From the IMG/VR virus record IMGVR_UViG_3300011113_000491, positions 59,466 through 123,465 of that record: a DNA stretch of 64,000 bases. The stretch is one strand, 5' to 3'. The translations under genes were made by a program, and so were the position numbers. The notes under the pieces are model-generated. The model was not told the origin of the DNA. It searched no databases and saw only the letters and a program-made list of their open reading frames with translations. Below are positions 8,041 to 27,202 of this stretch, one piece after another. How positions within the stretch are numbered: position 1 is the stretch's first letter; each line of letters opens with the position of its first letter. The stretch comes from a virus.

Positions 8041-8045
8041 TGTAG

Positions 8046-8156
8046 TTAGTCCTTGATTACAGAGAGAAAGAGAGAAACGGTCATCACGAACAGCGCAGCC
8101 CAGGCGCAGATGATGAATGACCACATGAGAAGAGCGAGAATCTGAAGAAGTTCCAT
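8046..8156 (-). CDS. 36-aa membrane peptide (not in the ORF track)
   Basis: MELLQILALLMWSFIICAWAALFVMTVSLFLSVIKD; AGGA upstream; fills the operon gap. Confidence 0.5.
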   Translation of the reverse strand: MELLQILALLMWSFIICAWAALFVMTVSLFLSVIKD

Positions 8157-8186
8157 GAGTGTTGAGTTTCCTAGTGAAGTTGAGAA

Positions 8187-9131: not shown

Positions 9132-9182
9132 GAGTGTGAGAGATCCTGTGTGAGAGAACGGGAAGAACGATGAAAGAGACGA

Positions 9183-9566
9183 TCAGACGGCGTAGAGCCA
9201 GCGGTTCTGGCCACGCCACGTATTGGCGCCGTCGATGTACTGGGTGATGGCATTGCGGACCACGATCAGGAAGTCCACCATGTCGGTGTCGGGTTCCAGC
9301 ACATATTCGGCGATCACATTGCGATCAGCGCCGCTGCGGGTGACATACCAAATCTGGTAGGTCTTGCCACCGCGGAAGATCGTGCCGCTGCATTCGAGCC
9401 AGCCCCACACATACGAACCAGCGCCTTGCAGGCGCACGGCGTATTCCATGTTGCGGACTTCCTTCGGAGTGGCGTTGATCACGACGCGGTCGGCGCCGCG
9501 GATCAGACAGGGGCGAAAGCCCTCGCGGGGCGCGGAAATAAGAATGGTTTCAAGAGTCATCATCAT
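9183..9566 (-). CDS. Hypothetical early protein (leaderless)
   Basis: ATG 9566 lies 7 nt after the -10 box. Confidence 0.6.
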   Translation of the reverse strand: MMMTLETILISAPREGFRPCLIRGADRVVINATPKEVRNMEYAVRLQGAGSYVWGWLECSGTIFRGGKTYQIWYVTRSGADRNVIAEYVLEPDTDMVDFLIVVRNAITQYIDGANTWRGQNRWLYAV

Positions 9567-9573
9567 GGGGGTC

Positions 9574-9602
9574 ATTCTACAGACCCCCCTCCCCCGTGTC
9601 AA
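9574..9602 (-). promoter_or_regulatory. sigma70-type promoter
   Basis: TTGACA-17-TAGAAT. Confidence 0.75.
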
Positions 9603-9971
9603 GCCGGCATAACCCCAGTCGGCACAAGGACTTACGGCATTTATGGGGATTTTCCCCGCGTGATAGTAACCAGTTATCGGACGTACTTTCCCCTCACCGT
9701 TGTCTTTTTACATCAAACGGCAACAGTGCCCAATCAAACCGTGATAGTACATTCAGATACTTGGTGTCGATTTGACAGTCTCAAATACGCTGCACCAAAT
9801 GAAACAGGGACTGCCCCTTGGAGGCAGCCCCTGAAAGTATTCACGGCACTTGATCTTCTAGAGCCAAGGTTAGAGAGAGCGCCGGCGACACTATGTGCCG
9901 CTTTCCCATCGTCTAGCGTGGGCGGGATAATTTGGTATTGTCACCCCCTGTTAGCACCGCAGAGTAGGCAC

Positions 9972-10178
9972 TTACGCCAAGCGGATGCCGCCAGTGCGCC
10001 CACGGACAAACATCACACGGGCGCCGAAATGCGCGACCAGAGATCGGCGGACATCATCAGACTTCATGCCGTATTGTGCGGCAAGGTCCTTGAGAGTCAC
10101 GCGCTGGCCTCCATTGACGGCGGTTTCGAAGGCAGCGAAGTCGATCTTGGTGCTATTGGGATTCATGGTAGTGGTCAT
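9972..10178 (-). CDS. Small HTH-like protein
   Basis: VTLKDLAAQYGMKSDDVRRSL; GAAAGGA SD. Confidence 0.6.
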   Translation of the reverse strand: MTTTMNPNSTKIDFAAFETAVNGGQRVTLKDLAAQYGMKSDDVRRSLVAHFGARVMFVRGRTGGIRLA

Positions 10179-10202
10179 ATTGTTCCTTTCTTGAACACAC
10201 AT

Positions 10203-10231
10203 AGTATAGAACAGAGAGAGGTATAAGTCAA
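10203..10231 (-). promoter_or_regulatory. sigma70-type promoter
   Basis: TTGACT-17-TATACT. Confidence 0.75.
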
Positions 10232-10501
10232 GAGAGTAGCAGCGTATTTGTTGAAACGGCAGCACATTTCTGAGTGACTCAGTTTCCCTGGATCGGCATT
10301 AGAGATCTCACGGCATATCACAGCCTCATGGCAAAGTGCCTGTGAGAAGTGGTGGGCACTGGCTTAGACTGCTCAAACGGCAAAGCCTTCTCAACACCCC
10401 TCAAAGCCCCCTCTATTTTCCCTCATTTCGTCTACACGCCCCACACTCCCCCATCCATCAACACTCCTCCCCACCCCATTCAATATACCCTCTAGAAACA
10501 G

Positions 10502-10533
10502 AAAACCCCATTGGCGTGAAACCAATGGGGTTT
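10502..10533 (-). terminator. Intrinsic terminator
   Basis: AAAACCCCATTGG-loop-CCAATGGGGTTT. Confidence 0.75.
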
Positions 10534-10556
10534 GTATACGATTCTGTGCTGTGTGT

Positions 10557-12170
10557 TCAGTCCTGCTCGTAGTGTTCTGCTATACCTCTTTCTCTCTTTC
10601 GAGCCTGTGAAGCTGCGCGCCGGGCAGCAATGTAACCGGTTTCTGCCTCGGCCTTCAGACCTCGCTCCCTTCTGCTGACTCCGTATTCCTTGGTATTGGC
10701 GGCATCGATCTTGGAGTACATCAGACCTATAGCTTTAGTCGGCAACCCAAGGCGTTCGGCTGTTGTGTATCTTATGTCAGGAACCCCATCCGGGCCGATA
10801 ACATCGCGTTCGCGAGGCGTGAGTCCGCCGCGCCCAAAGCGCCGGCCGCGCCACCACTCATCGCGCTTTACCCTATATTGGTGATCTCTGGTGTCTGGCG
10901 TGCCTTGTTTCCTCGCTCTCGCCGCTGCCAAATCTACGAGGCTCGCTGGAATCCCTGCGGCGTGACCTTCCCGTGCAGTTCTTTGTGCAAGAGTCCCGGC
11001 GACTTTGGATCTGTCTAGTTTCTCATCTAGTCTCTGCTTGTAGTGGTCTTTCAAGGTCTCCTCTAGTCTACGGCGTGGCTTGAAGAATGGAGGTTTTTTC
11101 GCCGCTTCAGCACCAGGCGCGAGCTTCGGCACTTGTTGGGCCGATCTTGCTACATTCTGTAGTCCTTGATATGCTGACTGGACACTCGCAGAGGCTCGTT
11201 GCCCCTCCTCTTGTGCTTTGTGGAGGTCAAACTGACCTCCGACGCGGTCGCCCGCGTTGCTCACGGCGAGCGTGGTAGCGAGGCCAAGCGCCGCTACCGC
11301 TCTCGGCGATATGTGATGGCCGTGCAGCGTATCGGTATCGCGTGGATTCAATCCGGTTTTCCGGCCTCGGCCGTCCGTCCGTACATAGGGTACATACTCG
11401 TCCGCTTTCTTGTCGATGGCACCACTGATCCGACCGACCGCTGTTCTTATCTTGTCTGTTATTCTTCCTTCATTCATATGAGGATCTTTTAGTATCTTTG
11501 GTTTTGGTTTATGTGCTTCTAGACTCCGTTTGTACTTCTCTGAATCCTTTGGTCCGCTATGCACGGTTGGATCAAATGGCGGCTTCTTCGGACCGGTATG
11601 TACGGTTGGGTCTGGTTCACCCTTCTCTGGCATCTTCATCTCATTCATCATTTCTCGTAGTGTGTTCTCTAGACTCATTTCATCTCTCCTTTGTTTATTA
11701 TTTATACTTCTATCGATCTGTCGTAGTTCTTGCTTCTTGTCCATTGCTGCTTTGTTGACGACATTTGGTGTCAACAATCCACGACCCGTGAGTGCCATCG
11801 TACCAGCCAGAACCCCTGCGGCGATTCGTTCTAGTGATGCCCTGACTGCATCTGATCTCTTGAGTCGGGCGGACCTTTCTTGTCTGTAGGTTTGAAGCCA
11901 TTGCGTATCCCGTGGATTGCTGGTCTCTGTTTTCTTCCACCGACCGCGATGGCCTGGTGTTTCTGATCCATCAGGCATGATGCCTTTGATGATGGGGTTT
12001 GTGGTCTCTCCCCTTCTCCCACCAAACCTCTCGACCGTCTTATCCCAGGCTCTACCAAAGGCGCGTTTGTTTCTAGCAAACCTCATGTCTAGAATCGACT
12101 GTCGTTTTTGTGATCTCCGCAGAGAGTCTAGGATTCCTTCATTCAGTCTCTGCTTGTAGTGTTCTTTCAT
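10557..12170 (-). CDS. Large basic modular protein, probable processed head polyprotein
   Basis: MKEHYKQRLNE recurs internally as LKDHYKQRLDE; further LRE/MNE sites; tandem DPTVH(T/S)GPK. Confidence 0.65.
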   Translation of the reverse strand: MKEHYKQRLNEGILDSLRRSQKRQSILDMRFARNKRAFGRAWDKTVERFGGRRGETTNPIIKGIMPDGSETPGHRGRWKKTETSNPRDTQWLQTYRQERSARLKRSDAVRASLERIAAGVLAGTMALTGRGLLTPNVVNKAAMDKKQELRQIDRSINNKQRRDEMSLENTLREMMNEMKMPEKGEPDPTVHTGPKKPPFDPTVHSGPKDSEKYKRSLEAHKPKPKILKDPHMNEGRITDKIRTAVGRISGAIDKKADEYVPYVRTDGRGRKTGLNPRDTDTLHGHHISPRAVAALGLATTLAVSNAGDRVGGQFDLHKAQEEGQRASASVQSAYQGLQNVARSAQQVPKLAPGAEAAKKPPFFKPRRRLEETLKDHYKQRLDEKLDRSKVAGTLAQRTAREGHAAGIPASLVDLAAARARKQGTPDTRDHQYRVKRDEWWRGRRFGRGGLTPRERDVIGPDGVPDIRYTTAERLGLPTKAIGLMYSKIDAANTKEYGVSRRERGLKAEAETGYIAARRAASQARKRERGIAEHYEQD

Positions 12171-12241
12171 AGCAACAGCATTCTCCAGTCATATGTATGC
12201 CTGCGAACACACCGACGCGCGTGATAGTACAGCGTGGGTAC

Positions 12242-12268
12242 AAAGAAACCCCGCGCATGGCGGGGTTC
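12242..12268 (-). terminator. Intrinsic terminator
   Basis: AACCCCGC-GCATG-GCGGGGTT with an adjacent A-tract on the plus strand. Confidence 0.65.
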
Positions 12269-12300
12269 GTTGCGAGTTGAGATGTCATCCGATGGGCGTC

Positions 12301-12864
12301 CTAGTCCACCCGCAGGACTACGGATGGATCCATCCGCAGGGTCTGCATGAGCTCCGTGACAAGGAACCCGCCGGGCCCGAATCCCTTCTGTGCCTCATTC
12401 ACCGAGTCATACCACACTACTGCGTCGTTGATGATGAGCCATTGCCAGATGAATCGTCCTAGTTCTAGGGACGGCGTGATCGGTGAGCTAGGCTTCATAA
12501 TCAGGATCGGTTGTTCTGCCCCATAGCGTACAGGTACTCGGTCACACCCAGGCCGTGCCATGTACACGGAGTATGAGCTCGCGGCCGCAGAATCCGTTGG
12601 AACCCATGTCACGCATACACAGTTCTCCGGGATCAGGGAGAACTTATACAAACATGGGCGCGAGTTCCAACGAAACCAAAAGTTCCCGATTGAATCCGAA
12701 CCATACCCAGGCGGATTGAACATACTGGGGCGATTGCCGTTCAAACGAACTCCAGTCCAACGACACCCGAGCTTGTCCAGTCCAATCGACGCCAGCATCT
12801 TCGTGTCCCCCGCGACAACCGCATCCACGATCATCTCATCCGAGAACGATTCAAGTGAAGTCAC
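12301..12864 (-). CDS. Hypothetical protein
   Basis: GTG start overlapping upstream TGA; GGGAGG SD. Confidence 0.6.
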   Translation of the reverse strand: MTSLESFSDEMIVDAVVAGDTKMLASIGLDKLGCRWTGVRLNGNRPSMFNPPGYGSDSIGNFWFRWNSRPCLYKFSLIPENCVCVTWVPTDSAAASSYSVYMARPGCDRVPVRYGAEQPILIMKPSSPITPSLELGRFIWQWLIINDAVVWYDSVNEAQKGFGPGGFLVTELMQTLRMDPSVVLRVD

Positions 12865-13298
12865 ACCGAGCCTCCCATCGAACGGATGCGGGACTCAAGC
12901 ACGGCGACCTTGGACTCAAGGTCAGCGATCTTCTTGGTCATCGCATCCGCACTGGCCGCACAGGCGTTGGCAAACTTGGTTGCCGACTCCAAGTCCATGT
13001 TGAGCGAGTCCACACCGGCAAGCAGGGACAGGGCATCCTCGCCGTCTTGGAAGTACCCTGCCTTGCGAAGGACATCGATCTCCCCCTTGGCCTTCATCAT
13101 CTCGTTCAGGTTCTTGAGGTCGAGGCGGATGTCGGGACGAACGGTCTTGGCATCCACGGCATCGATCTCGTCGTTGAACACCTCGTCCAACGATTCCTCC
13201 GTGGGGAACAGGAGGAGGGCGCCTTCGTTGGGGGTGATGGTTTCGTAGGTCTGTCCGTCAGAGAACACGATGATTGCGATGGTTTCGTTGTTGGTCAT
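12861..13298 (-). CDS. Hypothetical protein with C-terminal coiled coil
   Basis: KKIADLESKVAVLESRI; AAGG SD. Confidence 0.65.
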   Translation of the reverse strand: MTNNETIAIIVFSDGQTYETITPNEGALLLFPTEESLDEVFNDEIDAVDAKTVRPDIRLDLKNLNEMMKAKGEIDVLRKAGYFQDGEDALSLLAGVDSLNMDLESATKFANACAASADAMTKKIADLESKVAVLESRIRSMGGSV

Positions 13299-13335
13299 GT
13301 TGTACCTTGTGTTGGGGGTGAAAGAGGAAGAAGAA

Positions 13336-14643
13336 TCAGGCGTTCATTGCGTAGTTCGACACACTCACCGAACTCGGCATCGGCGTGGTCGTGGGAGGAG
13401 GGCCAGGGATGAAGTGACCGTTACTCGCCACATTGCTGATGTACTGCGGATCGATGACGATGGTACGAGTCTCAAGCAACTTGGTCGCCTGCGTAGCCCG
13501 CTGGGACCACTCGACACGCGCAGTAGCAGAACTGTACACAATCGAAGCGTTCAGCAACCGAAGCGCCTTCTTGTAGTCAGAGTCCATCCTCATCTGCGGG
13601 CCACCGGTCTCACGCGGCCGGCGGTGTTCGCCTCGGCGCCGCATAGCAGGAAGCGCACACCCGTAGTTGTTGCGCGACGGGTTGCCGCACAGTTCCACCG
13701 AACGAACCTTGACGAGATCTCCGGGAACGCCAGACATCTGAATCTGTGGGATGAACACATGGACGCGAAGGCCGATGTCACCTGCGGCAGTCGCAGATGC
13801 GTACCTGCAACGCTCATCGTCCAGCGCCGAGTCCCCGGCGGTGAAGAAGCTCTGCTGAACACCAGCAAGCTCGCGCGTCACCAACACATGGGCGGTCATG
13901 CCCGATGCGTGTGCCAGTTCAGACTGATCGAAGCAGTAGGTCATTGCACTGGCGATCAGGAAGTCGTAGTTATGCACGAAACTGTCGGGGCACATGACCT
14001 TGGACCAGTCCTTCTCGGTGAAGTCGTTGGGCAGGGCCTCAAGTTCCCTACGGTTGGGATTCAGTTCAAAGTCGATGACCTGGAGGTTGTTGAGACTGCG
14101 GATCACACTGCTCATGTCCGCGCGAAGGCCAGGAGTCCACGACCAACGACCGTGTGCCGGAGCGAGGTTCCATCGTGCGCCGATGGACTTGAAGTAGTTG
14201 TTCATTTCCTCGTCGTACCCACAGGTCTTGAGCACCAAGGTGGGCATTCCCTCCTGCGGAAACCGATTCAACTCGCTCCAGGCGGTGTAGTCGTTGACGA
14301 CGATGCCGCTCACGAGGCCGTCATTGTACAGAGACATCTGCACATCCTTGGCGAGCTTGTCCCACTTGGAACGGAGGATGACGAAGGTTCCGAGTTCTTC
14401 CATGAACGATGCACCATGAGCCTTCACGCGCTCACGCAGCTTCTTTGACTCGCGGGTGCGGAAGGGGACATGGATCGTGACGGCGACCGGACGCTCGTAG
14501 AACTTCCTTTCGGAGATGGGCTTGTCCGAGTCGCTGATGGCGAGGTTGAGTGCTTCCAGGCCTGCAACGCTTCCATGAACTGAAGCGGCAACGCCGAGGG
14601 TTTGGTAGACTGACGAGAGTTCGATTTGATTGAAGATGACCAT
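13336..14643 (-). CDS. Hypothetical protein
   Basis: 435-aa ORF co-oriented with the operon; GC-ending codons. Confidence 0.65.
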   Translation of the reverse strand: MVIFNQIELSSVYQTLGVAASVHGSVAGLEALNLAISDSDKPISERKFYERPVAVTIHVPFRTRESKKLRERVKAHGASFMEELGTFVILRSKWDKLAKDVQMSLYNDGLVSGIVVNDYTAWSELNRFPQEGMPTLVLKTCGYDEEMNNYFKSIGARWNLAPAHGRWSWTPGLRADMSSVIRSLNNLQVIDFELNPNRRELEALPNDFTEKDWSKVMCPDSFVHNYDFLIASAMTYCFDQSELAHASGMTAHVLVTRELAGVQQSFFTAGDSALDDERCRYASATAAGDIGLRVHVFIPQIQMSGVPGDLVKVRSVELCGNPSRNNYGCALPAMRRRGEHRRPRETGGPQMRMDSDYKKALRLLNASIVYSSATARVEWSQRATQATKLLETRTIVIDPQYISNVASNGHFIPGPPPTTTPMPSSVSVSNYAMNA

Positions 14644-14733
14644 GAGATGATTCCTGAAAGAGTGCGGACGATTGAAACGGGAAAGGTGAGTAACGGCGTT
14701 AGCCGATACCCACCGAGTAGGAGGTGTGATGGA

Positions 14734-15201
14734 TCAGAGGCCGGACAGGGCGCCGGGGCCGGACAACTTGGCAAGGCGGCGGAGGAAGTCGGCCTTACGC
14801 TTGCCCTTGAGCAGCACTGCCACGCTGACATAGTTGCTGCCCTGCTGACCCTGCTCCGTGTAATCCACGGCAGCGTCACCGCGCGTAGCGAAGATGCCGC
14901 GGAAGGTGGGCATCTTGTTCATCTGCTTGCGGAGTTCGCGGATGAAACGCTCGTCCGTGTAGATGAGCCCGTGACGCTGAATGTCCCAGTCCTTCTTGGT
15001 GAAGTACACGCGGAAGGCGACATACAGATCGTCGTTGTGGTAGTCGGCAAGGAGCTCCCCATCGTTCGGGAAGATGTAGTCCAGTTCGATGCGACGGATG
15101 GTGATGGTGCGGATCGACTCCGACCACAACCCCTTGCCGTCGGTCGTGCAGACGATGGGGGTCTTGAGAGGGAACGAGATACGAGTAGTAGTGTTGGTCA
15201 T
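14734..15201 (-). CDS. Hypothetical phage protein
   Basis: LIYTD..F..EL and VDYTEQGQQG..YVS, a pattern I recall from phage hypotheticals. Confidence 0.65.
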   Translation of the reverse strand: MTNTTTRISFPLKTPIVCTTDGKGLWSESIRTITIRRIELDYIFPNDGELLADYHNDDLYVAFRVYFTKKDWDIQRHGLIYTDERFIRELRKQMNKMPTFRGIFATRGDAAVDYTEQGQQGSNYVSVAVLLKGKRKADFLRRLAKLSGPGALSGL

Positions 15202-15249
15202 GTTACTGATGATCCTTGTGTTGAGTGTGCGAGAGAAAGAAACGAACGA

Positions 15250-16458
15250 TCAGAACGGCGCCTTGGTGCGATCAACCGGGGCGGCCGCCGGAGCCGGAGT
15301 GGGTTCCGGTTCCACGATCTTGGACCACGCGGAGTAGAACGATTCCTGCGTGGACTGATCGAAGCGGGCGAGTGAGAGGCGGATCGCCTTGTCCTTGTCA
15401 CCGAACACCGAGAACGCCTTGACGATGTTGAGCAGACGACGGGTCGAAACCACCTCATCGCAGGCACCTTCCTTGAAGGTGGCGCGGAGCATATCCGCCC
15501 ACTTGCACAGGTAACCCGCGAAGTCCTCATCGACCTTGCCGTACTTCTTCATGGCACGGACGAGGATGCGCTTCTCGGTCGCCACAGGGGCGTAGTCCTG
15601 CTCGTAGGTGTAGTCGAAGCGGTCGAGCATTGCCTCGTTCATCACGCGAGTACCGACGAAGCGGCCGTCATCGCTACCCTTGCCCTTGGTGTTGGCGGTG
15701 GCGAAGATGGTGAACCCGGTAGCGGGCGAAACCCATTGGTTGATCTTCTTGAGGAACACACCCTTACCCTCAAGCACCGACTGGAGGCACATGAGCTTGT
15801 CGCTGCCGAGGTCGATCTCGTCAAGGAGCAGCACGGCACCACGCTTCATCGCGGACACGACAGCACCATCGTGCCACACCATGTCGCCGTTGACGAGGCG
15901 GAAACCACCGAACAGATCATCCTCATCGGTCTCCGCAACGATGTTGACACGGAAGCACTCGCGTCCGAGCTTCGCGCAGACCTGTTCGATCATCGTTGTC
16001 TTGCCGTTGCCGGACAGACCCGTGACGAACACAGGCGAGAAGATGTTCGCCTTGATGATCGTGGAGATGTCATCGAAGTGACCCCACGGGACATACTCGG
16101 CGTTCGTGGGCGGGATCAGAGTGGCGCGATCACCACCGGTCATGCCCAGGACCTCGGCGTTGAACACCGCAGGGGCGGCCGCGGCGATCTTGACACTCGG
16201 CGCCGGAGCGGCAACCGGAGCAACCGGAGCAGCAGCAGGCGTCGCCTTGGTCGTCGTCGCCGGAGCGTTGACGATCTCGGGGACATGGAACAGGCCACGA
16301 CCGGCGTGGCGAGCGGGATCCTTGACGATCCACGCGGGCGGGAAGTTGTTGCCCACCAGCTGTGCAGCCTGGAGGAGCTGCTGGCGCGTCACGGGAGTGG
16401 CGCGCGTAATGGTGGCGAGGGCGGTGAAGTACGCGGTCTGCTTGGTAGTATTAGGCAT
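15250..16458 (-). CDS. MoxR-family AAA+ ATPase (CobS-like of T4-like phages)
   Basis: GLSGNGKT Walker A, LLLDEID Walker B, ATANTKGKG, NEAMLDRF, STRRL; ATG 16458 after its promoter. Confidence 0.9.
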   Translation of the reverse strand: MPNTTKQTAYFTALATITRATPVTRQQLLQAAQLVGNNFPPAWIVKDPARHAGRGLFHVPEIVNAPATTTKATPAAAPVAPVAAPAPSVKIAAAAPAVFNAEVLGMTGGDRATLIPPTNAEYVPWGHFDDISTIIKANIFSPVFVTGLSGNGKTTMIEQVCAKLGRECFRVNIVAETDEDDLFGGFRLVNGDMVWHDGAVVSAMKRGAVLLLDEIDLGSDKLMCLQSVLEGKGVFLKKINQWVSPATGFTIFATANTKGKGSDDGRFVGTRVMNEAMLDRFDYTYEQDYAPVATEKRILVRAMKKYGKVDEDFAGYLCKWADMLRATFKEGACDEVVSTRRLLNIVKAFSVFGDKDKAIRLSLARFDQSTQESFYSAWSKIVEPEPTPAPAAAPVDRTKAPF

Positions 16459-16465
16459 ACCGTCC

Positions 16466-16767
16466 AGGCTACCAGCTTCTGGTCCACGGCACAAGCCAGG
16501 AAATGGAAATATTTCTAAGTCCTTGTCCCATAAGGACTTACATAAACCCTTGTAAATAAAGGACTTATGGGGGGTATTATCGGACGCCGTTCCCTACTGC
16601 CGGGGGCGGGGGCCCATATTATCGGACATCCACCAGAGAGGAGGGGGCGTCCGATAAGCGTGATAGTATCCAGTTATGGGACTTTCGGTCGTAAGTCCTT
16701 ATGCCACAACGATTTACGATAAATCTAGGGTTTCCCTATTGCGCGGGGACCCCCGATATGGTAGCCT
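16466..16767. promoter_or_regulatory. Divergent promoter pair with operator-like repeats
   Basis: Minus: TTGTGC-17-TAGCCT-7-ATG; plus: TTGCGC-17-TAGCCT-7-ATG; three TAAGTCCTT-N7-AAGGACTTA-type palindromes; three TTATCGGAC. Confidence 0.75.
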
Positions 16768-16774
16768 GTCCGGT

Positions 16775-19228
16775 ATGCTTACTGCCAGTACTACGCCCGT
16801 CGTTCAAACCATTCGCCATACTTCAAAGGATCTGCTTGCGCGTATCCTCGCCACGGAGAATCTGACCGTGCGCCACGATCCCTCCGCGCAGACCGCCAGC
16901 ATGGATGTCGTCAATCGCGTTCTCACGCTCCCCGTGTGGACTGACATGACCAACGAGGTCTACGATATGCTGATCGGTCACGAGGTCGGCCATGCCCTGT
17001 TCACTCCGCACACGGAAGCAGACAAGCGCGTGTCTGGCCCGTGGTGTGCCGCTGCCGAGGAGATCGCTGGTATCAACCAAGAAACTCCGAGGTGCCAGAT
17101 GCTCCTCAACATCGTGGAGGACGCCCGCATCGAACGCATGATGAAGCAGAAGTTCCCCGGTATGCGCCGCGACTTCTTCAAGGCCTACGAGTACATGAAG
17201 GCCAATGACTTCTTCGGCATCAACGCCAAGACCGCGGATGAACTGAACGCTCTGCGTTTCGCTGACCGCATCAACCTGCACTACAAGCTCGGCACCATCG
17301 GTGATACGGGTATCTACTTCAGCGACACCGAGCGCGAGTACCTCAAGCGCATCGATGCCGCCAAGACCTTCGATGACATCAAGGACATCGTGCGCGACCT
17401 GTGGAACACCAAGGCGTACAACGAACCGGGCCAGAAGCAGGATGCCGGCGACGGTACTGGTGACGGCGACATCGGTGACATGGACAACGACGGCAACGAC
17501 GCTGGCCAGCAGCAGCAGGGCAAGTCCAACAGCGGACAGACCAACAGCGGCCAGTCGCCCAGTAAGGGCAACGATTCGCAACCGGGTCAGGATCAGTCCA
17601 ATGGTGCATCGCAGCAGCAGGGCGACCAGAAGTCCAACCAGTCCGGTGCCGGTCGTCACGGCGACCACAGTTCTGTTGCGGGTTCGACGCAGCAGGCGAT
17701 GCAGGATCACCTGTCGTCGCGTACCAAGACCAGCGGAAGCTACCAGTACATGACTCTGCCCGAGCCTGATCTGTCCAAGATCATCATGGGTTGGCGCGAC
17801 ATCGCCAAGGAGTTCGTGCAGTTCGACTCCAAGGTTTCGGGTGCCTACGATATGCCCGCGATCCGTCGCGTGGCGACCGAGATGTCGAGCAAGTTCATGT
17901 CGGACAGCAAGCCCATCGTGTCGCTCATGGTGAAGGAGTTTGAGATGCGTAAGGCCGCCGATGCGTCGGCGCGTGTTCGTGTCGCCACCACCGGCGTCCT
18001 CGACGGCGTGCGTGTCTGTAACTACCGGATCACCGACGACATCTTCCGTCGTCACGCGACCGTGCAGGCTGGCAAGAACCACGGGTTCGTCATCTTCATC
18101 GACTGGTCGGGTTCCATGTCGCCCGTGATCGGGCCCGTGTTCAACCAGGCGCTTCAGGTGATGATGTTCTGCCGTCGCGTCGGTATCCCGTTCGATGTGT
18201 ATGCGTTCAGCAGCGCGACTGCTCCGGGCGTCGAGCGTCGTGACCAGTGGAAGACTACTGATGGCAACAACATCATGTTCAACAGTTTCATGCTCATGCA
18301 CCTGTTCTCATCGTCCATGTCGTCGGCAGCGTTCAACAACCAGGTCGCCCTCATGTGGAGCGTTGCCCATCAGCGCGGTCTTTCGACCGAGTGTGAGCGT
18401 CGCGGTATGCGTATCGGTTGGAGTGCGCCGATTCCTGACTTCATGCACATGGGTTCGACTCCGCTTGACGAGTCCATCGCCTGTGCAATGAAGATCGTGC
18501 CGGAGTTCCGCACCCGCAATCGTGTGCAGATCGTCAACACGGTGTTCCTCACCGACGGCGCTACTACGAGTCCGTGGGGTGGTGGCAACGCATACGATTC
18601 AATCTGCGGAGACAAGGCGACGAGCAACATGGAGTTCCTGACCGTCGGTCACAAGAACTACGCCGCTGCACCGTCATCGACTGCCGCAATGCTGCGCGCG
18701 CTGCGTGACCAGTGCGATACTCGCGTGATCGGGTTCTTCCTTGTCGAAGCACCCAACAAGGTGTATGCCGAAGGCAAGTTCTCGCCTGCCAAGCCCAATC
18801 GCTACAGCGGCGACATCGACTCGTCGTACTCGTATGTCGATGCCACGGGCCGCGAGTGTCCGTCCAAGGTTGGTTACTTGACGCAGGGTCTCATTCCACT
18901 CGACCGTCCCGCGATCAAGTCGCATTGGAACTCCCGTCCGATTCTGTCTGCGGATGACTGCAAGCGGGCCAATGAAGAGGTCGCCCGGTTCGCAGAGGAG
19001 GACTACTGCATCGCCGTGCCGACTTCGTTCGTCGGTGCCGGGTACGACGAGATGTACATGATCCGTGCCGGTCTCGATGTTGACAACACGGATCACCTCG
19101 GTGCGCTCAACGCCAACACCGCCACGGTGGCACAGGTGAAGCGCGCCCTGCTCAAGTCCGCCCGTGGCAAGCTCAAGTCCCGTAAGATGTTCACCCGTTT
19201 CGTTTCCCTCATCTCGACCCAGGCCTAA
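16775..19228 (+). CDS. Metallopeptidase-like plus VWA domain protein (CobT-like MoxR partner)
   Basis: HEVGH, NIVEDARIE, Q/S/G/D-rich linker, DWSGS MIDAS, GSTPL, LTDG. Confidence 0.88.
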   Translation: MLTASTTPVVQTIRHTSKDLLARILATENLTVRHDPSAQTASMDVVNRVLTLPVWTDMTNEVYDMLIGHEVGHALFTPHTEADKRVSGPWCAAAEEIAGINQETPRCQMLLNIVEDARIERMMKQKFPGMRRDFFKAYEYMKANDFFGINAKTADELNALRFADRINLHYKLGTIGDTGIYFSDTEREYLKRIDAAKTFDDIKDIVRDLWNTKAYNEPGQKQDAGDGTGDGDIGDMDNDGNDAGQQQQGKSNSGQTNSGQSPSKGNDSQPGQDQSNGASQQQGDQKSNQSGAGRHGDHSSVAGSTQQAMQDHLSSRTKTSGSYQYMTLPEPDLSKIIMGWRDIAKEFVQFDSKVSGAYDMPAIRRVATEMSSKFMSDSKPIVSLMVKEFEMRKAADASARVRVATTGVLDGVRVCNYRITDDIFRRHATVQAGKNHGFVIFIDWSGSMSPVIGPVFNQALQVMMFCRRVGIPFDVYAFSSATAPGVERRDQWKTTDGNNIMFNSFMLMHLFSSSMSSAAFNNQVALMWSVAHQRGLSTECERRGMRIGWSAPIPDFMHMGSTPLDESIACAMKIVPEFRTRNRVQIVNTVFLTDGATTSPWGGGNAYDSICGDKATSNMEFLTVGHKNYAAAPSSTAAMLRALRDQCDTRVIGFFLVEAPNKVYAEGKFSPAKPNRYSGDIDSSYSYVDATGRECPSKVGYLTQGLIPLDRPAIKSHWNSRPILSADDCKRANEEVARFAEEDYCIAVPTSFVGAGYDEMYMIRAGLDVDNTDHLGALNANTATVAQVKRALLKSARGKLKSRKMFTRFVSLISTQA

Positions 19229-19242
19229 TAGGAGAACCTACA

Positions 19243-20115
19243 ATGACTACCAAGACATGGCCATCATCATTGGACGCACACATCGAAATGAACTTTGAGT
19301 TCAGGTACAACCACGGCGCAGGACTCGCGTTCCATGATGGACTCAATCCTGCGTTGGCGGACATCATCACTACAAGAGAGATGTTCCACCTCGCACAAGA
19401 TTGGGGATGCCAGAAGTACGCGCAGATCAAGAAGTACATCAAGGGATATGACTCGTTCAGTCTCCTCATGCACCCGGACTCGTCTGTGAAGATGTTCGTC
19501 AAGTCCCTCACCGTCAGCTACACCACGATGAACACCGAGCGGATTCTGTTCTTCTATGACTCAAAGGGAGTCAACGACGGCGTTGCAATGCTCTGGCTTC
19601 CTGGTCACAACAGTCCGGCGCCCATGAGTCCTGCTCGTTTCTCGACCCACGCCGAAACGGTCAACGGACTTGGAGACAGAGGGTACTACCGCCAATACGA
19701 AGAAGGATTCAAGCAGAATCCGATTGCGATGGCGAAGCACATGGTCTGCGAGATCATTCGGATCAAGCAGGTTCACCGATGCGCGCCGGGTAGTATGGCA
19801 GGCAGCAACGAACAGGACTTCCGTCTGATGCCGCTCGAGCTCTTCGTCGGTAGCAAAGAACTGATCCGAGATGTGTGGGATTCTCTCGTTGGATACTCCC
19901 CGCGGCCGGTCGAGATGAAGGAAGAAGGATCAGCAATCTGCACGAACGGTCTGAAGTTCGGTGACTACATGGAAGAATGCGGTGACATGATGATTACGCA
20001 CTACAACAACCACATTCTTGAATCGTTCGCAGACAACCTCCGCATCAACGGCATCAATATGTTCCCGATTGTTAGCGGTCATTCAAACAAGGGTATCGTG
20101 ACGCACCCGGTTTGA
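19243..20115 (+). CDS. Hypothetical protein
   Basis: AGGAG SD; directly downstream of the VWA gene. Confidence 0.7.
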   Translation: MTTKTWPSSLDAHIEMNFEFRYNHGAGLAFHDGLNPALADIITTREMFHLAQDWGCQKYAQIKKYIKGYDSFSLLMHPDSSVKMFVKSLTVSYTTMNTERILFFYDSKGVNDGVAMLWLPGHNSPAPMSPARFSTHAETVNGLGDRGYYRQYEEGFKQNPIAMAKHMVCEIIRIKQVHRCAPGSMAGSNEQDFRLMPLELFVGSKELIRDVWDSLVGYSPRPVEMKEEGSAICTNGLKFGDYMEECGDMMITHYNNHILESFADNLRINGINMFPIVSGHSNKGIVTHPV

Positions 20116-20159
20116 ACTAACACGAACCCAGTCAGACGCCCAAGGTGGGCAGTAGCATG

Positions 20160-20192
20160 GGGCGGATCGTTCTACGATCCGTCCCTTTTTTT
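20160..20192 (+). terminator. Intrinsic terminator
   Basis: GGGCGGATCG-TTCTA-CGATCCGTCCC then a T-tract. Confidence 0.8.
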
Positions 20193-20358
20193 ATCGTGAT
20201 AGTATCGCGTGGTATTCGCCGCATGACCACGGGAAAGATCGGCAGGATATGGATATATGCCATCGTGGCAGGATATGAAACACCGATGGCATAGTGGTCA
20301 TACTGCCATATGCCAATGCAATCTGGCATTATTTCTTTCAGAAATATGTGAAATATGC

Positions 20359-20387
20359 TTGTGAAATGTTTCACGATCCGGTAGACT
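20359..20387 (+). promoter_or_regulatory. sigma70-type promoter (leaderless)
   Basis: TTGTGA-17-TAGACT-6-ATG 20394. Confidence 0.6.
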
Positions 20388-20393
20388 ACACGC

Positions 20394-20666
20394 ATGGCAA
20401 GACCTACAGACCCGTTCGATCCCGCGTCTATGGACGCATACATCAACCCGATTCTCAATCGCGCGGCAATCGATGTCGTCTATTTGAACGACATCGCATC
20501 CAAAGCGGAGCTCATGCTTGAGTTGTTCATACAGCACGGCCTGCTCGACATTGAAGTGACCGGCAACGGTGACTTCGCCTACCGTGTGTCCGACATTTGG
20601 AAGAAAGAACTCGCCGCTGAAGGACACGATCTCTCTCGCATTCCCCTCTCGCACCTCTCTTACTGA
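20394..20666 (+). CDS. Hypothetical protein
   Basis: ORF directly after the promoter. Confidence 0.65.
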   Translation: MARPTDPFDPASMDAYINPILNRAAIDVVYLNDIASKAELMLELFIQHGLLDIEVTGNGDFAYRVSDIWKKELAAEGHDLSRIPLSHLSY

Positions 20667-20676
20667 AATACGAAAT

Positions 20677-21045
20677 ATGCCATTCGACCCCTACAACAAC
20701 GAACACACCGACAGCAGCCTCTACTTCGATGACTTCGGAGACACCGACGACCGCATGGAAATCCTGCGCGAGCTCGATGAGGACTACGACCCCATGAGCG
20801 ACCCCGATCCCTTCGATGACGATGAAGAATGGTCAGAGGAGGACGACGACCGCGGCGCCGTTCGTGAGGACGAGGATGAGAACTACGACGACCTGGATGA
20901 CGACGACCTTGAGGATGACGACCACGAGGAACTGCCGCATGAGGACGACGACGACTTTGATGACTGCTTCAACTGCGACGGCAGCATCTCCGATAAGGGA
21001 TTCGCCCTTCTCGGTGACATGGATCGCAGGGGTCTCTTTGTCTGA
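20677..21045 (+). CDS. Extremely acidic small protein
   Basis: D/E-dominated sequence; ATG 20677 after the upstream stop. Confidence 0.65.
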   Translation: MPFDPYNNEHTDSSLYFDDFGDTDDRMEILRELDEDYDPMSDPDPFDDDEEWSEEDDDRGAVREDEDENYDDLDDDDLEDDDHEELPHEDDDDFDDCFNCDGSISDKGFALLGDMDRRGLFV

Positions 21046-21055
21046 AAGGACACCA

Positions 21056-21541
21056 ATGACCACCACTACTGTTTCTGTTCCCCAAGTTCATCCGCCTGCC
21101 TATTCGTACTGCACGGCCAAGGTGATTCCCCCCACAACCAAATCCATCACGACCGGCATGATGATGTTCGACAAGTCGTATATGCTTTCTGTGCAGAGCA
21201 AGTTCATCCATATGTGGATGCGCGATATGCCAGCAAAGTACCCGCAGCACAAGACGCCGCATATGCCCTCAAAGGCGTGTGAGTTCGCGCAGGCCTGCTA
21301 TATGCTTGCGACTGGATATGGCGAACACGCCATGCCGGCATTCAATGGGTACAGTCGTGACTTCCTGATGATGGTTTCCAATCAGTTGGGATATGCGTAT
21401 ATCCCGGCATGGATCGTCAAGGACAAGTCGCGCCGCCTTGATCGTTCGATGTACATGGTTCCCGAAGTTTCGATTTATGCCGTCGCATATCTCTCCACCC
21501 TCCCGACTCCAACCACCAACGAGGTTACCACCAATGCGTGA
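21056..21541 (+). CDS. Hypothetical protein sharing a motif with the AAA+ N-terminus
   Basis: GAAAGGA SD; PAWIVKD..R..R..VPEV. Confidence 0.65.
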   Translation: MTTTTVSVPQVHPPAYSYCTAKVIPPTTKSITTGMMMFDKSYMLSVQSKFIHMWMRDMPAKYPQHKTPHMPSKACEFAQACYMLATGYGEHAMPAFNGYSRDFLMMVSNQLGYAYIPAWIVKDKSRRLDRSMYMVPEVSIYAVAYLSTLPTPTTNEVTTNA

Positions 21542-21842
21542 GAACACCATCACCGTGATTTTTGACGACGCCGACCGCCGACAGATGGAGTGGCAACCCA
21601 ATCTGACAGAGCATGAGTTTCCCCTGTGGTGGCAGAGTCTCACCGATACCGACTTCATTCGGTTCTACTTCAACCCGTTCGCCCTGCCAGGCACGGTCAA
21701 GGTGATGAAGAATCGGCAGGAAGTGAAGCCGTATTACTACTGCTACTTCGATGAGATGCAGAACTCATACATCAGCGTGGGCCAGAGGACGATCCCGTAT
21801 CGATACGGCGATCTGAACTGGAAGAGGCACTGGCCCGCGTAA
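21534..21842 (+). CDS. Hypothetical protein
   Basis: ATG 21534 overlapping the upstream stop; GAGG SD. Confidence 0.6.
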   Translation: MRENTITVIFDDADRRQMEWQPNLTEHEFPLWWQSLTDTDFIRFYFNPFALPGTVKVMKNRQEVKPYYYCYFDEMQNSYISVGQRTIPYRYGDLNWKRHWPA

Positions 21843-21869
21843 CACAATCTCCGTGCCATGGGACGCAAC

Positions 21870-21906
21870 GACCCGACAGGTTTCATCGCCTGTCGGGTCT
21901 TTTTTT
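21870..21906 (+). terminator. Intrinsic terminator
   Basis: GACCCGACAGG-loop-CCTGTCGGGTC then a T-tract. Confidence 0.85.
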
Positions 21907-22060
21907 GACGCGTGATAGTATCAGTATAGAAATATGCTAGTTTATGAAATATGCGATTTTAGGAAATATGCAAATCATAATCCAACAAATCTAGCAACAA
22001 GGATTCCAACGCAGAACGAAATAAGCGAAATGAGAATCTTGTGAATCTTCAAGTCGTTCT

Positions 22061-22585
22061 TCATGTTGATCTTTTCCCCGAGCGGCCGCGGCCGCCTCTT
22101 CCGGTCAATCTACGCATCAGTGCTTGCTTCAATACATCTCTGATTGTTGGTTCGTCAACAGTCGGTGATTCTGTTGGAGTTGGTGCAACTTCTGGTCTAG
22201 TTTGCTGACCAGAAACTGAATCAGATGAAGCAGATCCACTACTTTGTTGTGTTGGAGTAGTCTGCTGCGGCGGTGATGTGGTCGCCGAGGATTGGGTATT
22301 TGATGGATTCCATCTTGAATACCAATCATTTCTTTCATCAGCTGCCGGTGTTGAAGATGCCGGAGTTGGAATATCTGAAACTGGACTTTCTATTGGTTGC
22401 CACGATGAAGCAATAGAAGAAGAACTTGTTGGCAATCTTCCTTGCTCAACAGGGGGTGTCATGGGAACCGCCTGACCAACTTCCTCTTCTGGAGAAGTAG
22501 TAAGTTCTCTCCTAGCAGTTAGTTGCTTTGATGGAGTTGGAGTAGAAGGTTCCGTTGTCCCCACATTTCCCGGAGGAGTTGCCAT
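22061..22585 (-). CDS. S/T/P-rich low-complexity ORF; possible -1 frameshift extension of the upstream gene
   Basis: Frame stays open back to 22630; no SD before its ATG. Confidence 0.55.
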   Translation of the reverse strand: MATPPGNVGTTEPSTPTPSKQLTARRELTTSPEEEVGQAVPMTPPVEQGRLPTSSSSIASSWQPIESPVSDIPTPASSTPAADERNDWYSRWNPSNTQSSATTSPPQQTTPTQQSSGSASSDSVSGQQTRPEVAPTPTESPTVDEPTIRDVLKQALMRRLTGRGGRGRSGKRST

Positions 22586-22617
22586 CGGTCTAACCGATGG
22601 ATCACTTCGGGGTGGGG

Positions 22618-23349
22618 TTACCGTTTTCCCTTACCACGCCCCAATGAAGTAACTTGACCTCTGGCAATTTTTAGCAAAGATGGTTTTTCAATTGGTACTT
22701 CTGGCTCTGGGAAGTTTCTATCAAGAATCTTCTGTAACATCCCTGCATATCCCGCGGGATCTTGTACTCCTCGGGCCTTCCATTCACTGCCAGTTGTCTG
22801 CTGGCGACTTGCTGGAGGCCGAGCGACCTGTCTATATCTTACTCCGGCGCGTGGTCCGCCGAGCTCTGGTTCCCTCGTTAATTCTGAACCAAAATCTCCG
22901 CCGAGAGGATATTGTCTGGGAGACAGGTTCAAAATTGCCTGTTGAATATACTTCTTGAGAGCTCCAGGCAGACCCAACCCAGCAAGGAGACCTCTATTTT
23001 TGATGTTTGTACCTATTGCCTTCGCTCCAGCAAATAGTGGTGATTCCTTTTTGCTAGATGCTGTTCTCATTGCACCAAAAACATTAATTTCGTTTAACTG
23101 ATTGTTAATTCTTGCTTTGAAATGTTCTTTCATATCCATATTGAGGTTTCCTTCTTTTTCTAATTTGAATGCAGCTTTTTGAAGTTTTAGTTCTTCTTCT
23201 CTTGCCTTATTTATGCTATCGTATATTTGTCTTTCGGCAGCAGACATTGGTTTTCTTGCTCGTAAAGCATCGGCAATCTGTGCCATAAACTCATCGTCTG
23301 CCGGGGTCGTGGTTCCCTTTATTACTTTATCTAAATCGTTTTGTTCCAT
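22618..23349 (-). CDS. Late protein with an internal head-protein-like motif
   Basis: ATG 23349 lies 5 nt after TATACATA; internal MKEHFKARINNQLNE. Confidence 0.65.
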   Translation of the reverse strand: MEQNDLDKVIKGTTTPADDEFMAQIADALRARKPMSAAERQIYDSINKAREEELKLQKAAFKLEKEGNLNMDMKEHFKARINNQLNEINVFGAMRTASSKKESPLFAGAKAIGTNIKNRGLLAGLGLPGALKKYIQQAILNLSPRQYPLGGDFGSELTREPELGGPRAGVRYRQVARPPASRQQTTGSEWKARGVQDPAGYAGMLQKILDRNFPEPEVPIEKPSLLKIARGQVTSLGRGKGKR

Positions 23350-23435
23350 AAGAATATGTATAAAAGAATAACAAAATAGACATTTTGCATCGGCATACCC
23401 CCTGTGGTATAATCTACATATCAAGGAGGTGCTAT

Positions 23436-24053
23436 ATGACCAAAGAGCAAGAACTCGTAAAGCATATCAGGAATCATCTCAAGGAACATGGGTTCCGTCT
23501 TATACTCGGTAGAGGTAAGAAAGTAAATGTCGGTGACGCACGGTGTGAAGGATACTTCTCCGTTGGTGACACCAAGAAAGAAAGACAAATAAGAGTGGCG
23601 AAGGCAGGGGACACATGGTTGTATGTCCTTGCCCATGAATATTGTCATTTTCTACAATGGCTAGAAACTCCACAAAGAACTCTAGACACACAGGACAATG
23701 CACAGCATATTGTTCATTGTGTTTCTGTTGGACAGATAGATCCCAAGTGGAAACAATCATATATCCGTTGGGCATTCCGTGTTGTCGCAGAGAACGAAAG
23801 AGACTGCGAACGCAGGACGGTACGACTTCTTGAGGAGTGGGGCATTCCTTTCAACAAGGATATGTACATCAAGAAGGCAAATCTGTATGTGTATCTCCAC
23901 CATATGTGGAGAGAATATCACTTCCTGAAGACCAGATTCAATGTCTATAAGTCAAATAAGATTTTGGATGTTGTGTCAAACAACTTCAAGGCAAAGAGTC
24001 ACATCGTGGTACCAAAGGCAGTCCGAAGAGAACTCGACCGAGCATTTGCTTAA
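23436..24053 (+). CDS. HEXXH metallopeptidase-like protein
   Basis: LAHEYCHFLQ..ERDCE; promoter TTGCAT-17-TATAAT and AAGGAGGT SD. Confidence 0.7.
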   Translation: MTKEQELVKHIRNHLKEHGFRLILGRGKKVNVGDARCEGYFSVGDTKKERQIRVAKAGDTWLYVLAHEYCHFLQWLETPQRTLDTQDNAQHIVHCVSVGQIDPKWKQSYIRWAFRVVAENERDCERRTVRLLEEWGIPFNKDMYIKKANLYVYLHHMWREYHFLKTRFNVYKSNKILDVVSNNFKAKSHIVVPKAVRRELDRAFA

Positions 24054-25610: not shown

Positions 25611-25845
25611 TCTTACTTCCGATCTTTTCGATTAGACCGTCGATGAAAGATTTTGGTTCTTCCTTTTTCTCAACAACTGGGACTTGGATTTCGCATCTGT
25701 CTTGACCAACAAGAAGACTGGCATTCTTTGGATCGATTGCTCTTGCCACTCCCTTCATGATCTCAACTTCAGATAAAAGCATTTCCTGACACTTCCCGGT
25801 ATATGCCTTGGCGAAATATAACTGAACTTTCTTACCTTTCTTCAT
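25591..25845 (-). CDS. Hypothetical protein
   Basis: Start/stop overlap; GAGGAG SD. Confidence 0.55.
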   Translation of the reverse strand: MKKGKKVQLYFAKAYTGKCQEMLLSEVEIMKGVARAIDPKNASLLVGQDRCEIQVPVVEKKEEPKSFIDGLIEKIGSKIKGYFE

Positions 25846-26462
25846 ATTCTTCTCCTCTTATTTAAAAATACTGACAACGATAACAACGCAAGACATCCGG
25901 GTGCTGGAACGGCGTTCGTTCCAAAACCGCAGTAGTCAATCAAATTACCTTGTGTGTTTCCGCCCACTGCATTCACTGCTTCAAATGCAAATCTAGTCAG
26001 ATTGCCAATTGAAGTAATAGTTCCGAAGTGAACTTGCCATGCTGTGTTATCAGCAGAAAATTCTTGTTGAAATAAAACGGTATCATCTCCACCACCAACA
26101 GTCTGATCTGTACCAAAATCAGTGATGGTCAAACGCATGGTATCAACACCATCTCTTCCACGGTGAGCAAAGTGCCAATTGATTTGATTGAAGTCACCGA
26201 GTCCATTTACATTCTGATATAGGGTAGAAGCATAATTTGCATTTAATTCTGCAAACGAATTTCCTTCATAGGCAGGAACTCCTAAAAATCCATTTTCCCA
26301 GACTTCGATCAAGTTATCTGGTGCAGTAGTTGCCCAGCCACTTTGAGGATCTGTTCCAGAATAAAAACTGTAGCCCCATGCGGGAAAGCTCTCAAAACCA
26401 CCATTGACTAAATTTGCGGATGCTGAAGTGGTAATTGCTAATGCTGCTAGAAATGCTTTCAA
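25842..26462 (-). CDS. Secreted PEP-CTERM (VPAPG-type) protein with beta-rich domain
   Basis: Signal peptide MKAFLAALAITTSASA; NLVNGGFE; C-terminal VPAPGCLALLSLSVFLNKRRRI. Confidence 0.8.
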   Translation of the reverse strand: MKAFLAALAITTSASANLVNGGFESFPAWGYSFYSGTDPQSGWATTAPDNLIEVWENGFLGVPAYEGNSFAELNANYASTLYQNVNGLGDFNQINWHFAHRGRDGVDTMRLTITDFGTDQTVGGGDDTVLFQQEFSADNTAWQVHFGTITSIGNLTRFAFEAVNAVGGNTQGNLIDYCGFGTNAVPAPGCLALLSLSVFLNKRRRI

Positions 26463-27202
26463 ATTCTTCTCCTTGTTGGTTTAACTAACTGATACAGCAC
26501 GAACGACGAAACGGTTGATGGTGTAGGAACAACCGATATTGCTCCCATTCTATAATCAGGTGTCATATCAATATCTGGTAACTGCGTAGAAGTCAGATCA
26601 AATGATATGACCGGAGGAGTCGCGTAAAAATCAGAAACCGCTAGATCAATTGCGGATACTGCTTCAGGCAACTGCTCCGGTTGTGCTGGAGACTCCACTG
26701 CATCTTTCGATGAAGTCTTTGGTTTTAATTTAAATCTAGTTGGAACAAACGAAGATGATTCCGAGTTAGATTTAGATGAAGTGGCAACATATATGCGATA
26801 TGGTCCTTCATACTTTGTGTTCTCTTCCAGAAAGATATTCTTATTTGAGTTTGCTACAAATTCTTTAAGATTTGGATTTCTTATTTTATTTGGAGTGTTG
26901 ATGTTGTTGGTTTGATCACTAGATCCAGATTCTGCTTCTGGAGTTTTGTCTGGATTTGCAATGTTCTGAACGCTAGTAATAGACTCAATCAACTTTTGAA
27001 TCTTTTCTACTGCTTCTTGTCCAACTATAGTCAATGCAACAGTACTGGCAATAGTCAATGCCATAATCTTACCCTGCATACCGACTATTCTTCTTTTATT
27101 TTCTTCGTTCTGTTTCTGACAGTCTTCTATTTGACCTTTTTTGATTTCTTCTATTTGTTCCTTTAATGATTCGCAAGAAGAACAATTTGGTTTATTTGAC
27201 AT
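26459..27202 (-). CDS. Membrane-anchored protein with degenerate PEP-CTERM tail
   Basis: Coiled coil, hydrophobic helix, C-terminal VPTPSTVSSFVLYQLVKPTRRRI. Confidence 0.65.
   Translation of the reverse strand: MSNKPNCSSCESLKEQIEEIKKGQIEDCQKQNEENKRRIVGMQGKIMALTIASTVALTIVGQEAVEKIQKLIESITSVQNIANPDKTPEAESGSSDQTNNINTPNKIRNPNLKEFVANSNKNIFLEENTKYEGPYRIYVATSSKSNSESSSFVPTRFKLKPKTSSKDAVESPAQPEQLPEAVSAIDLAVSDFYATPPVISFDLTSTQLPDIDMTPDYRMGAISVVPTPSTVSSFVLYQLVKPTRRRI

Follow-up and report, generated by a model that had tools for sequence, protein, structure and literature searches.

A slippery heptamer of the form X XXY YYZ followed by a 3′ RNA structure is the standard signal for −1 ribosomal frameshifting, and one account places G_GG.A_AA.A among the low-efficiency heptamers used by insertion sequence (IS) elements (PMC4066793). 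In phage lambda, a −1 shift on X XXA AAN a few codons before the end of an open reading frame (ORF) yields the short gpG and the extended gpGT products in a fixed ratio (PMC5009743). Of 2476 joined frameshift genes annotated in one phage collection, 2397 are tail chaperones (PMC10885494). Here we describe two ORFs, ORF1 and ORF2, that are joined by a candidate −1 site in a 64,000-nucleotide stretch of viral DNA (the window; positions 59,466–123,465 of IMG/VR record IMGVR_UViG_3300011113_000491). We consider it probable that the site is a genuine programmed −1 frameshift and yields two forms, of 243 and 429 residues, of an uncharacterised protein other than a tail chaperone.

ORF1 lies on the minus strand (23349–22618) and its zero-frame product has 243 amino acids. 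We take the ATG at 23349 as the likely start, since this is where the homologues begin; the ORF listing also offers an upstream TTG at 23424. We found that ORF1 ends ...GGT AAG GGA AAA CGG TAA, with the zero-frame stop at 22620–22618, and that the heptamer G GGA AAA (22630–22624, minus strand) is in X XXY YYZ phase with it, as the initial annotation had read it. The same annotation described a −1 frame that is closed just 5′ of the heptamer and open into ORF2, and this too is confirmed in the sequence. A −1-frame TAA (22633–22631, minus strand) stands directly 5′ of the heptamer and confines a productive shift to the 13 nucleotides (nt) before the zero-frame stop. The −1 frame then reads GGG AAA ACG GTA ACC CCA CCC CGA AGT GAT CCA TCG GTT AGA CCG ATG..., runs without a stop into ORF2, and stays open for 187 codons 3′ of the heptamer. 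ORF2 itself occupies 22585–22061 on the minus strand (stop 22063–22061) and encodes 174 residues from the ATG at 22585. Between heptamer and ORF2 lies a linker of 13 codons (TVTPPRSDPSVRP; 22624–22586, minus strand), which would be read only after a shift and would be non-coding if the ORFs were two separate genes. The predicted trans-frame product thus consists of ORF1 residues 1–242, the 13 linker residues and the 174 of ORF2, 429 in all. The peptides TVTPPR and SDPSVRPMATPPGNVG... are encoded upstream of or across the ORF2 ATG, so that only a shifted ribosome could yield them. A simple scan of the minus strand between ORF1 and ORF2 detected no promoter-like or terminator-like site.

The heptamer is followed by a 6-nt spacer, CGG TAA (22623–22618, minus strand), made up of an Arg codon and the zero-frame stop, which begins 3 nt after the heptamer. 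CGG is rare, accounting for 4.7% of Arg codons in the window genome, and it follows the heptamer in three of the five junction sequences (the window and the four relatives described below). An imperfect hairpin of 59 nt, the putative frameshift stimulator, occupies 22617–22559 on the minus strand and hence starts 6 nt (CGGUAA) after the heptamer. Folding the RNA of 22632–22550 reproduced exactly the helices that the initial annotation had named, CCCCAC/GUGGGG, CCCG/CGGG and an apical CCAUCGGU-UAG-ACCGAUGG, with a minimum free energy of −31.5 kcal/mol (shuffle mean −24.6). In this fold the ORF2 AUG (22585–22583) is paired in the 3′ arm of the apical stem. The junction carries the features of a canonical −1 signal: an in-phase heptamer, an open −1 frame, a structure (in silico) starting within about 5–9 nt and conservation beyond coding. 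A search against Rfam gave no match at E up to 1, a 19-base hairpin pattern had no match among viral contigs, and a DNA pattern had none among genome contigs. An unrelated 28.7-kb viral contig contains an exact copy of the 18-base apical hairpin (L010, 11412–11429), placed just before the start of a large ORF; we judged this a chance match and not a related locus.

The ORF2 start had been described as lacking a Shine–Dalgarno (SD) sequence, and indeed no SD-like 4-mer can be read upstream of its ATG. This part of the description stands but carries little weight, as about half of the genes are alike in this respect: an SD-like 4-mer occurs at only 55 of 114 gene starts (background 13%), and the remaining 59 include the ORF1 start. 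The burial of the ATG is the stronger point. At −29.9 kcal/mol (−35 to +38), the start context of ORF2 is the most structured of all 114 gene starts (mean −9.0, standard deviation 5.2).

These features suggest the following mechanism. ORF1 and ORF2 would be carried on one mRNA, and most ribosomes would stop at the ORF1 TAA and release the 243-residue protein. In a fraction of ribosomes, the hairpin that begins 6 nt downstream would lie at the mRNA entrance and cause a pause while GGA occupies the P site and AAA the A site; the rare CGG, together with the stop codon that follows 3 nt after the heptamer, may contribute to this pause. A stop codon 3 nt 3′ of the shift site matters in one plant-virus case (PMC5009743). 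The Gly and Lys tRNAs would then re-pair one base back, from GGA AAA to GGG AAA, in a tandem slippage, and the shifted ribosomes would read the 13 linker codons and the whole of ORF2. The resulting 429-residue form would share its first 242 residues with the short form and gain a long Ser/Thr/Pro-rich extension with a second Arg/Gly-rich basic tail. Since the hairpin keeps the ORF2 AUG paired, we propose that ORF2 would be made mainly or only as an extension of ORF1.

We examined whether this arrangement recurs in relatives. A search of 5.8 billion proteins gave eight relatives of the ORF1 protein, and an exhaustive search of representatives gave six. DNA was obtained for eight loci, corresponding to seven distinct contigs (one viral, six metagenomic). 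Four of the loci span the junction (L003, L004, L006 and L007), the junction is deleted in L005, and the contigs of L001 (the same as L009) and L008 stop short of it. Among viral contigs only one related contig was found (L001 = L009), and it ends within the ORF1 homologue. A tblastn search with ORF1 and ORF2 against 50,697 phage records gave no matches, a scan of viral contigs with an ORF2 alignment gave none, and a protein search of genome contigs found no relatives.

The initial annotation proposed looking for a conserved heptamer and hairpin, and both are kept in all four junction-spanning loci. Each has an in-phase heptamer at the window's position, the ORF2 homologue in the −1 frame, and the TAA stop, the spacer length and the hairpin at the same place. 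The heptamer itself varies. L003 and L004 read GGC CCA AAA CGG TAA (C CCA AAA), and L006 and L007 read ATC CCA AAA AAG TAA, in which C CCA AAA AAG holds two in-phase heptamers, C CCA AAA and A AAA AAG; the natural variants are thus GGGAAAA, CCCAAAA and CCCAAAAAAG. C_CC.A_AA.A shifts at >0.1% even without a stimulator, and A_AA.A_AA.G is listed among the best motifs (PMC4066793). The residues encoded at the heptamer differ among the lineages (K-G-K, G-P-K, I-P-K), and the third base of the preceding codon always matches, being AAG before GGA and GGC or ATC before CCA. The last two are minority codons, GGC forming 11% of Gly codons and ATC 19% of Ile codons. With window codon usage, the chance of obtaining a heptamer from synonymous choice is 0.174, 0.057 and 0.099 in the three contexts, with a product of about 1e-3 if they are independent.

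The segment around the site is conserved beyond what its coding explains. The second half of ORF1 is less than 50% identical across lineages, and identity reaches 0.91–0.96, the maximum of the locus, exactly from the heptamer through the hairpin. A consensus fold of the five sequences has 21 pairs, 20 of them invariant, and the variable sites fall in the heptamer, the spacer, the loops or one weak internal pair. Among the four relatives the linker differs by a single synonymous substitution (AGT to AGC in L003) and by a change of its first codon (ACG to AAG in L006/L007). The stretch that begins with the heptamer and closes with the hairpin comprises 23 −1-frame codons, in which 1, 1, 2 and 2 synonymous differences occur in about 20 sites, a proportion of synonymous differences (pS) of 0.05–0.10; pS is about 0.43 for the whole of ORF2 (binomial P 2.1e-4 for ≤1 difference and 1.6e-3 for ≤2). 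Suppressed synonymous change of this kind is the usual signature of a functional element laid over coding sequence, and may well mark one here. Against three relatives, ORF2 has a ratio of nonsynonymous to synonymous substitution (dN/dS) of 0.27–0.30 at dS 0.63–0.67, and we therefore conclude that it is a translated frame under purifying selection.

Two further observations concern the L006/L007 lineage. An SD-like AGGAGGAGG, encoding Gly-Gly-Gly, lies 9 nt 5′ of C CCA AAA in both loci, and the window has only GGGG at a similar distance. Upstream SD-like elements are known stimulators in IS911 and dnaX, and AGGAGGAGG could be a stimulator of that type. In the same loci (L006 2949–3770 and L007 903–1724) the ORF1 homologue lacks its first ~45 residues or has others in their place, and the open frame starts ...QHINKAREE; a database protein of this lineage, P0015, starts MDMKEHF.

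Single-base frame changes at short homopolymer runs are a common type of sequencing error, and the split into two frames might in principle be such an error, or a lineage-specific frameshift mutation in one former ORF that is now decaying. Following the check suggested with the initial annotation, we looked for an indel at 22624–22630 in independent assemblies and found none: Logan contigs cover these positions without an inserted or missing letter, and they derive from a run of the source study (X2) and two further studies (X4 and X5). The contig from X4 (record 4) has no differences over 22556–22900, and that from X5 (record 5) has seven substitutions and no gaps over 22300–22688. The same two-frame layout is present in five sequences from separate contigs. 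The ORF1 homologues, at about 47–92% identity, stop at the same point with the exception of P0004, and the dN/dS of ORF2 is low even at a dS of about 0.65. One protein does speak for a former single ORF, since P0013 (291 residues) carries the ORF2 tail within one longer ORF, but its upstream half is not recognisably ORF1-like. Taken together, the gap-free contigs, the four related loci and the selection on ORF2 rule out a sequencing indel and make a decaying gene very unlikely; we regard artefact or decay, in either form, as highly improbable.

The frame could also be changed before translation, by slippage of RNA polymerase on the A run, and the six-A run in L006 and L007 would favour this. 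Productive transcriptional slippage, however, needs runs of about 8–9 or more, the window, L003 and L004 have only four A, and a conserved hairpin 6 nt to the 3′ side is a feature of ribosomal slippage. We give this explanation almost no credence.

A more serious alternative is that ORF1 and ORF2 are separate genes, with ORF2 starting at its own AUG (22585), the hairpin serving as a device for translational coupling or control, and the heptamer being incidental to a Lys-rich C-terminus. Ribosomes that end ORF1 at the TAA, 1 nt before the stem, would melt the base of the stem and so expose the AUG 32 nt downstream. The ORF2 ATG is kept in all five sequences and gene callers start P0009–P0012 there, so that independent or coupled initiation has to be reckoned with. 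The lack of an SD-like 4-mer at 59 of the 114 gene starts, ORF1's included, makes initiation without one unexceptional, and suppressed synonymous change would suit any functional RNA structure. Yet coupling leaves the phase and spacing of the heptamer unexplained: the heptamer stays in phase despite altered letters and residues, by way of minority codons, and the 6 nt from heptamer to stem is the usual spacing of a stimulator. The AUG, moreover, sits in the apical stem of the most structured of the 114 start contexts, which is not obviously opened by a ribosome halted 32 nt upstream, and no SD-like motif is there to capture ribosomes. We judge separate genes to be rather unlikely as the sole explanation; frameshifting and coupled initiation of ORF2 could both be true at once.

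Besides the kept ATG, several points weigh against a programmed shift. G_GG.A_AA.A is inefficient in E. coli according to the same heptamer account (PMC4066793), a point that also favours separate genes, and the shift may therefore be low-level. The fold z-score is modest (−2.18, equalled by 4 of 200 shuffles), and none of the 21 pairs covaries, the stems being invariant. The junction-spanning loci represent only about three lineages, which are partly independent, L003 being near L004 and L006 being the same as L007 over the junction. The segment is more than 90% identical in all of them, so its conservation may partly reflect recent common descent or recombination.

The window genome on its own also provides little contrast. 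In-phase X XXY YYZ heptamers with Y = A or T occur at 213 of 38,717 codons, and a heptamer whose −1 frame stays open for more than 30 codons beyond the stop is found in 4 of 113 non-overlapping ORFs, ORF1 and three others, as one would expect if the heptamer were incidental. The pattern is thus not clearly above chance within the genome alone, and the excess comes from the comparison with relatives. Elsewhere in the window, the minus-strand ORF at 59855–60364 has an in-phase GGGAAAT 30 nt before its stop and a 425-codon −1 extension into a DNA methylase-like ORF (58575–59858). This is probably an ordinary overlapping gene pair, and we counted it in the base rate only.

We found no relative in which ORF1 and ORF2 are fused in one frame: none of the six proteins from the representative search of ORF1 exceeds 328 residues, and all database entries found list ORF1 and ORF2 relatives separately. 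There is therefore no independent sign that both ORFs belong to one polypeptide, which likewise counts against a trans-frame product. A search for longer proteins containing ORF2 found none and is weak as evidence. Two proteins were considered as natural fusions and rejected. P0004 (390 residues) continues past the usual end of ORF1, but its extension is not ORF2-like, and for the first half of P0013 neither BLASTP nor hhalign demonstrates a likeness to ORF1. A deletion variant was found in the 33-kb relative L005 (4001–4327, encoding the 108-residue P0014), in which ORF1 residues 1 to ~92 are joined in frame to the last 16 residues of ORF2. The two parts meet in a shared CGTAGA, which either frame translates as Arg-Arg, and the heptamer and hairpin are deleted. 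L005 hints that head and basic tail form a working unit; with only one such record, and with one such outcome in three expected to be in frame by chance, we give this little weight.

Weighing these points, we favour the programmed −1 frameshift. The initial annotation had proposed such a shift with a short form and a Ser/Thr/Pro-rich long form of a protein other than a tail chaperone, and every computational test that we ran supports this proposal, as far as sequence comparison can. We further suggest, tentatively and with somewhat less than even confidence, that the hairpin has a dual role, stimulating the −1 shift and locking the ORF2 start, so that the Ser/Thr/Pro-rich module would be made only as an extension of ORF1, in a ratio set by the heptamer. 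The pair would then form a new recoded family outside the tail chaperones, in which the middle of ORF1 is swapped freely and the recoding cassette is kept.

The ORF1 protein has a conserved helical N-terminal part (about residues 1–120), a variable middle and a basic Gly/Arg/Lys tail, ...SLGRGKGKR. An AlphaFold2 (AF2) model built from an eight-sequence alignment is helical for about 140 residues and then disordered (predicted local distance difference test score, pLDDT, 46.8). The homologues P0001–P0007 share the start Met, all ORF1 relatives but P0004 end at the same point, and homologues over the range of about 47–92% identity end in a basic tail of the form ...GRGKGKR, ...GRGRGKR, ...GPKR or ...IPKK, the second of these being the ending of P0003, at 66% identity. 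ORF1 matches no Pfam family at E up to 0.01, and its lone PHROG match is weak (phrog_402, unknown function, E 0.0036). The ORF2 protein is Ser/Thr/Pro-rich and of low complexity, with an invariant C-terminal EPTIRDVLKQALMRRLTGRGGRGRSGKRST; its five relatives share an invariant C-terminal EPTI[RK]D[VI]LKQALMRRLTG...GRSG.R. It has no match in Pfam, PHROG or PDB. PDB profile searches with ORF1 and ORF2 found nothing, and the top score in Atlas was 0.85, under the lead threshold. Both forms would end in Gly/Arg/Lys-rich tails; those of ORF1 (...GRGKGKR) and ORF2 (...GRGGRGRSGKRST) are alike by eye, and hhalign gives this likeness no support.

The phage is a myovirus. The window forms the final 64 kb of a viral contig of 123,465 bases, the completeness of which is estimated at ~55%, and the ORF1/ORF2 pair lies at about 82 kb of this contig. 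Genes for the large terminase, tail sheath and baseplate wedge are within the first 45 kb (1.5–37 kb), and the pair is far from these and all other recognised structural genes. The window encodes a family B DNA polymerase, a DnaB-like helicase, a class II ribonucleotide reductase, an exonuclease and a CobS/CobT-like pair. ORF1 and ORF2 sit amid small unknown genes on alternating strands, between a GC-rich island that contains the CobS/CobT-like genes and the DNA-metabolism genes. With such neighbours and the structural genes distant, the initial description of the two ORFs as late is unsupported. Among the neighbours scanned within about 5 kb of the pair there are no Pfam matches, and the sole PHROG match is the gene at 16676–19228 (phrog_459, labelled peptidase). 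This gene is the CobT-like one, and the CobS-like gene lies at 15250–16494 (phrog_249), both inside the island (window 8000–22000), which has a GC content of 0.52–0.60 versus 0.34–0.44 elsewhere. The junction of low and high GC beside ORF2 recurs in L005 and is therefore not an assembly chimera.

Several neighbouring genes have features of their own. Diverging from ORF1 is a plus-strand gene (23385–24053, 222 residues) with an HEYCH (HExxH-type) motif, which is kept beside ORF1 in relatives such as L001 and has no match in Pfam or PHROG. Two adjacent minus-strand ORFs (25842–26462 and 26459–27202) end VPAPG...hydrophobic...KRRRI and VPTPS...hydrophobic...RRRI, by eye like PEP-CTERM sorting tails; Pfam gave no match for either at E up to 0.01. 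A minus-strand cluster at 54987–56606 holds three tRNA genes, Asn(GTT), Gly(TCC) and Leu(TAA). The phage-encoded tRNA-Gly(UCC) reads GGA, the P-site codon of the heptamer, and we conclude nothing firm from it.

The proposed mechanism is textbook, and what is new is the gene family in which this well-supported candidate recoding site lies; we regard the finding as useful rather than surprising. A conserved site in an unrelated, uncharacterised pair of myovirus genes adds to the short list of recoded phage genes other than tail chaperones, and if the reading is true, standard annotation misses a 429-residue product. With spacer and hairpin identical, the natural heptamers, three in number, offer a ready comparison of heptamer identity with frameshift rate. 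In the literature searched, no report of the ORF1/ORF2 family turned up, and we do not claim its absence from print.

In anatomy the locus is like lambda gpG/gpGT and its equivalents in many tailed phages, where slippage by −1 shortly before the upstream ORF ends gives a short and a long form. The lambda heptamer is G GGA AAG, whereas that of the window ends in A, and the predicted products are much longer (243 and 429 residues), largely helical and then disordered. That the protein is not a tail chaperone, as first suggested, is borne out by both homology and position, the two of three tail-chaperone features tested that fail here: Pfam and PHROG show no homology to chaperone families, and the pair is not beside tail genes, the recognised tail and head genes lying in the first 45 kb of a contig that is ~55% complete and in which the tail tube region was not seen.

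The orfA–orfAB arrangement of IS3 and IS911 provides a second parallel, as there too a heptamer and a 3′ stem-loop direct a −1 fusion of two overlapping ORFs. Elements of the IS3/IS911 family use G_GG.A_AA.A and A_AA.A_AA.G among their heptamers (PMC4066793). Unlike in these elements, the overlap in the window is only 13 nt and there is no transposase homology (inverted repeats were not searched for).

A third parallel is with T7 gene 10A/10B and the major head protein of Lactobacillus phage A2, in which some of the molecules are extended at the C-terminus by a −1 shift close to the very end of the ORF. The T7 gene 10 motif starts with a non-canonical G_GU (PMC5009743). ORF1 differs from these capsid proteins in having no capsid homology, and its predicted extension is 187 residues long, of low complexity, and ends in a basic tail.

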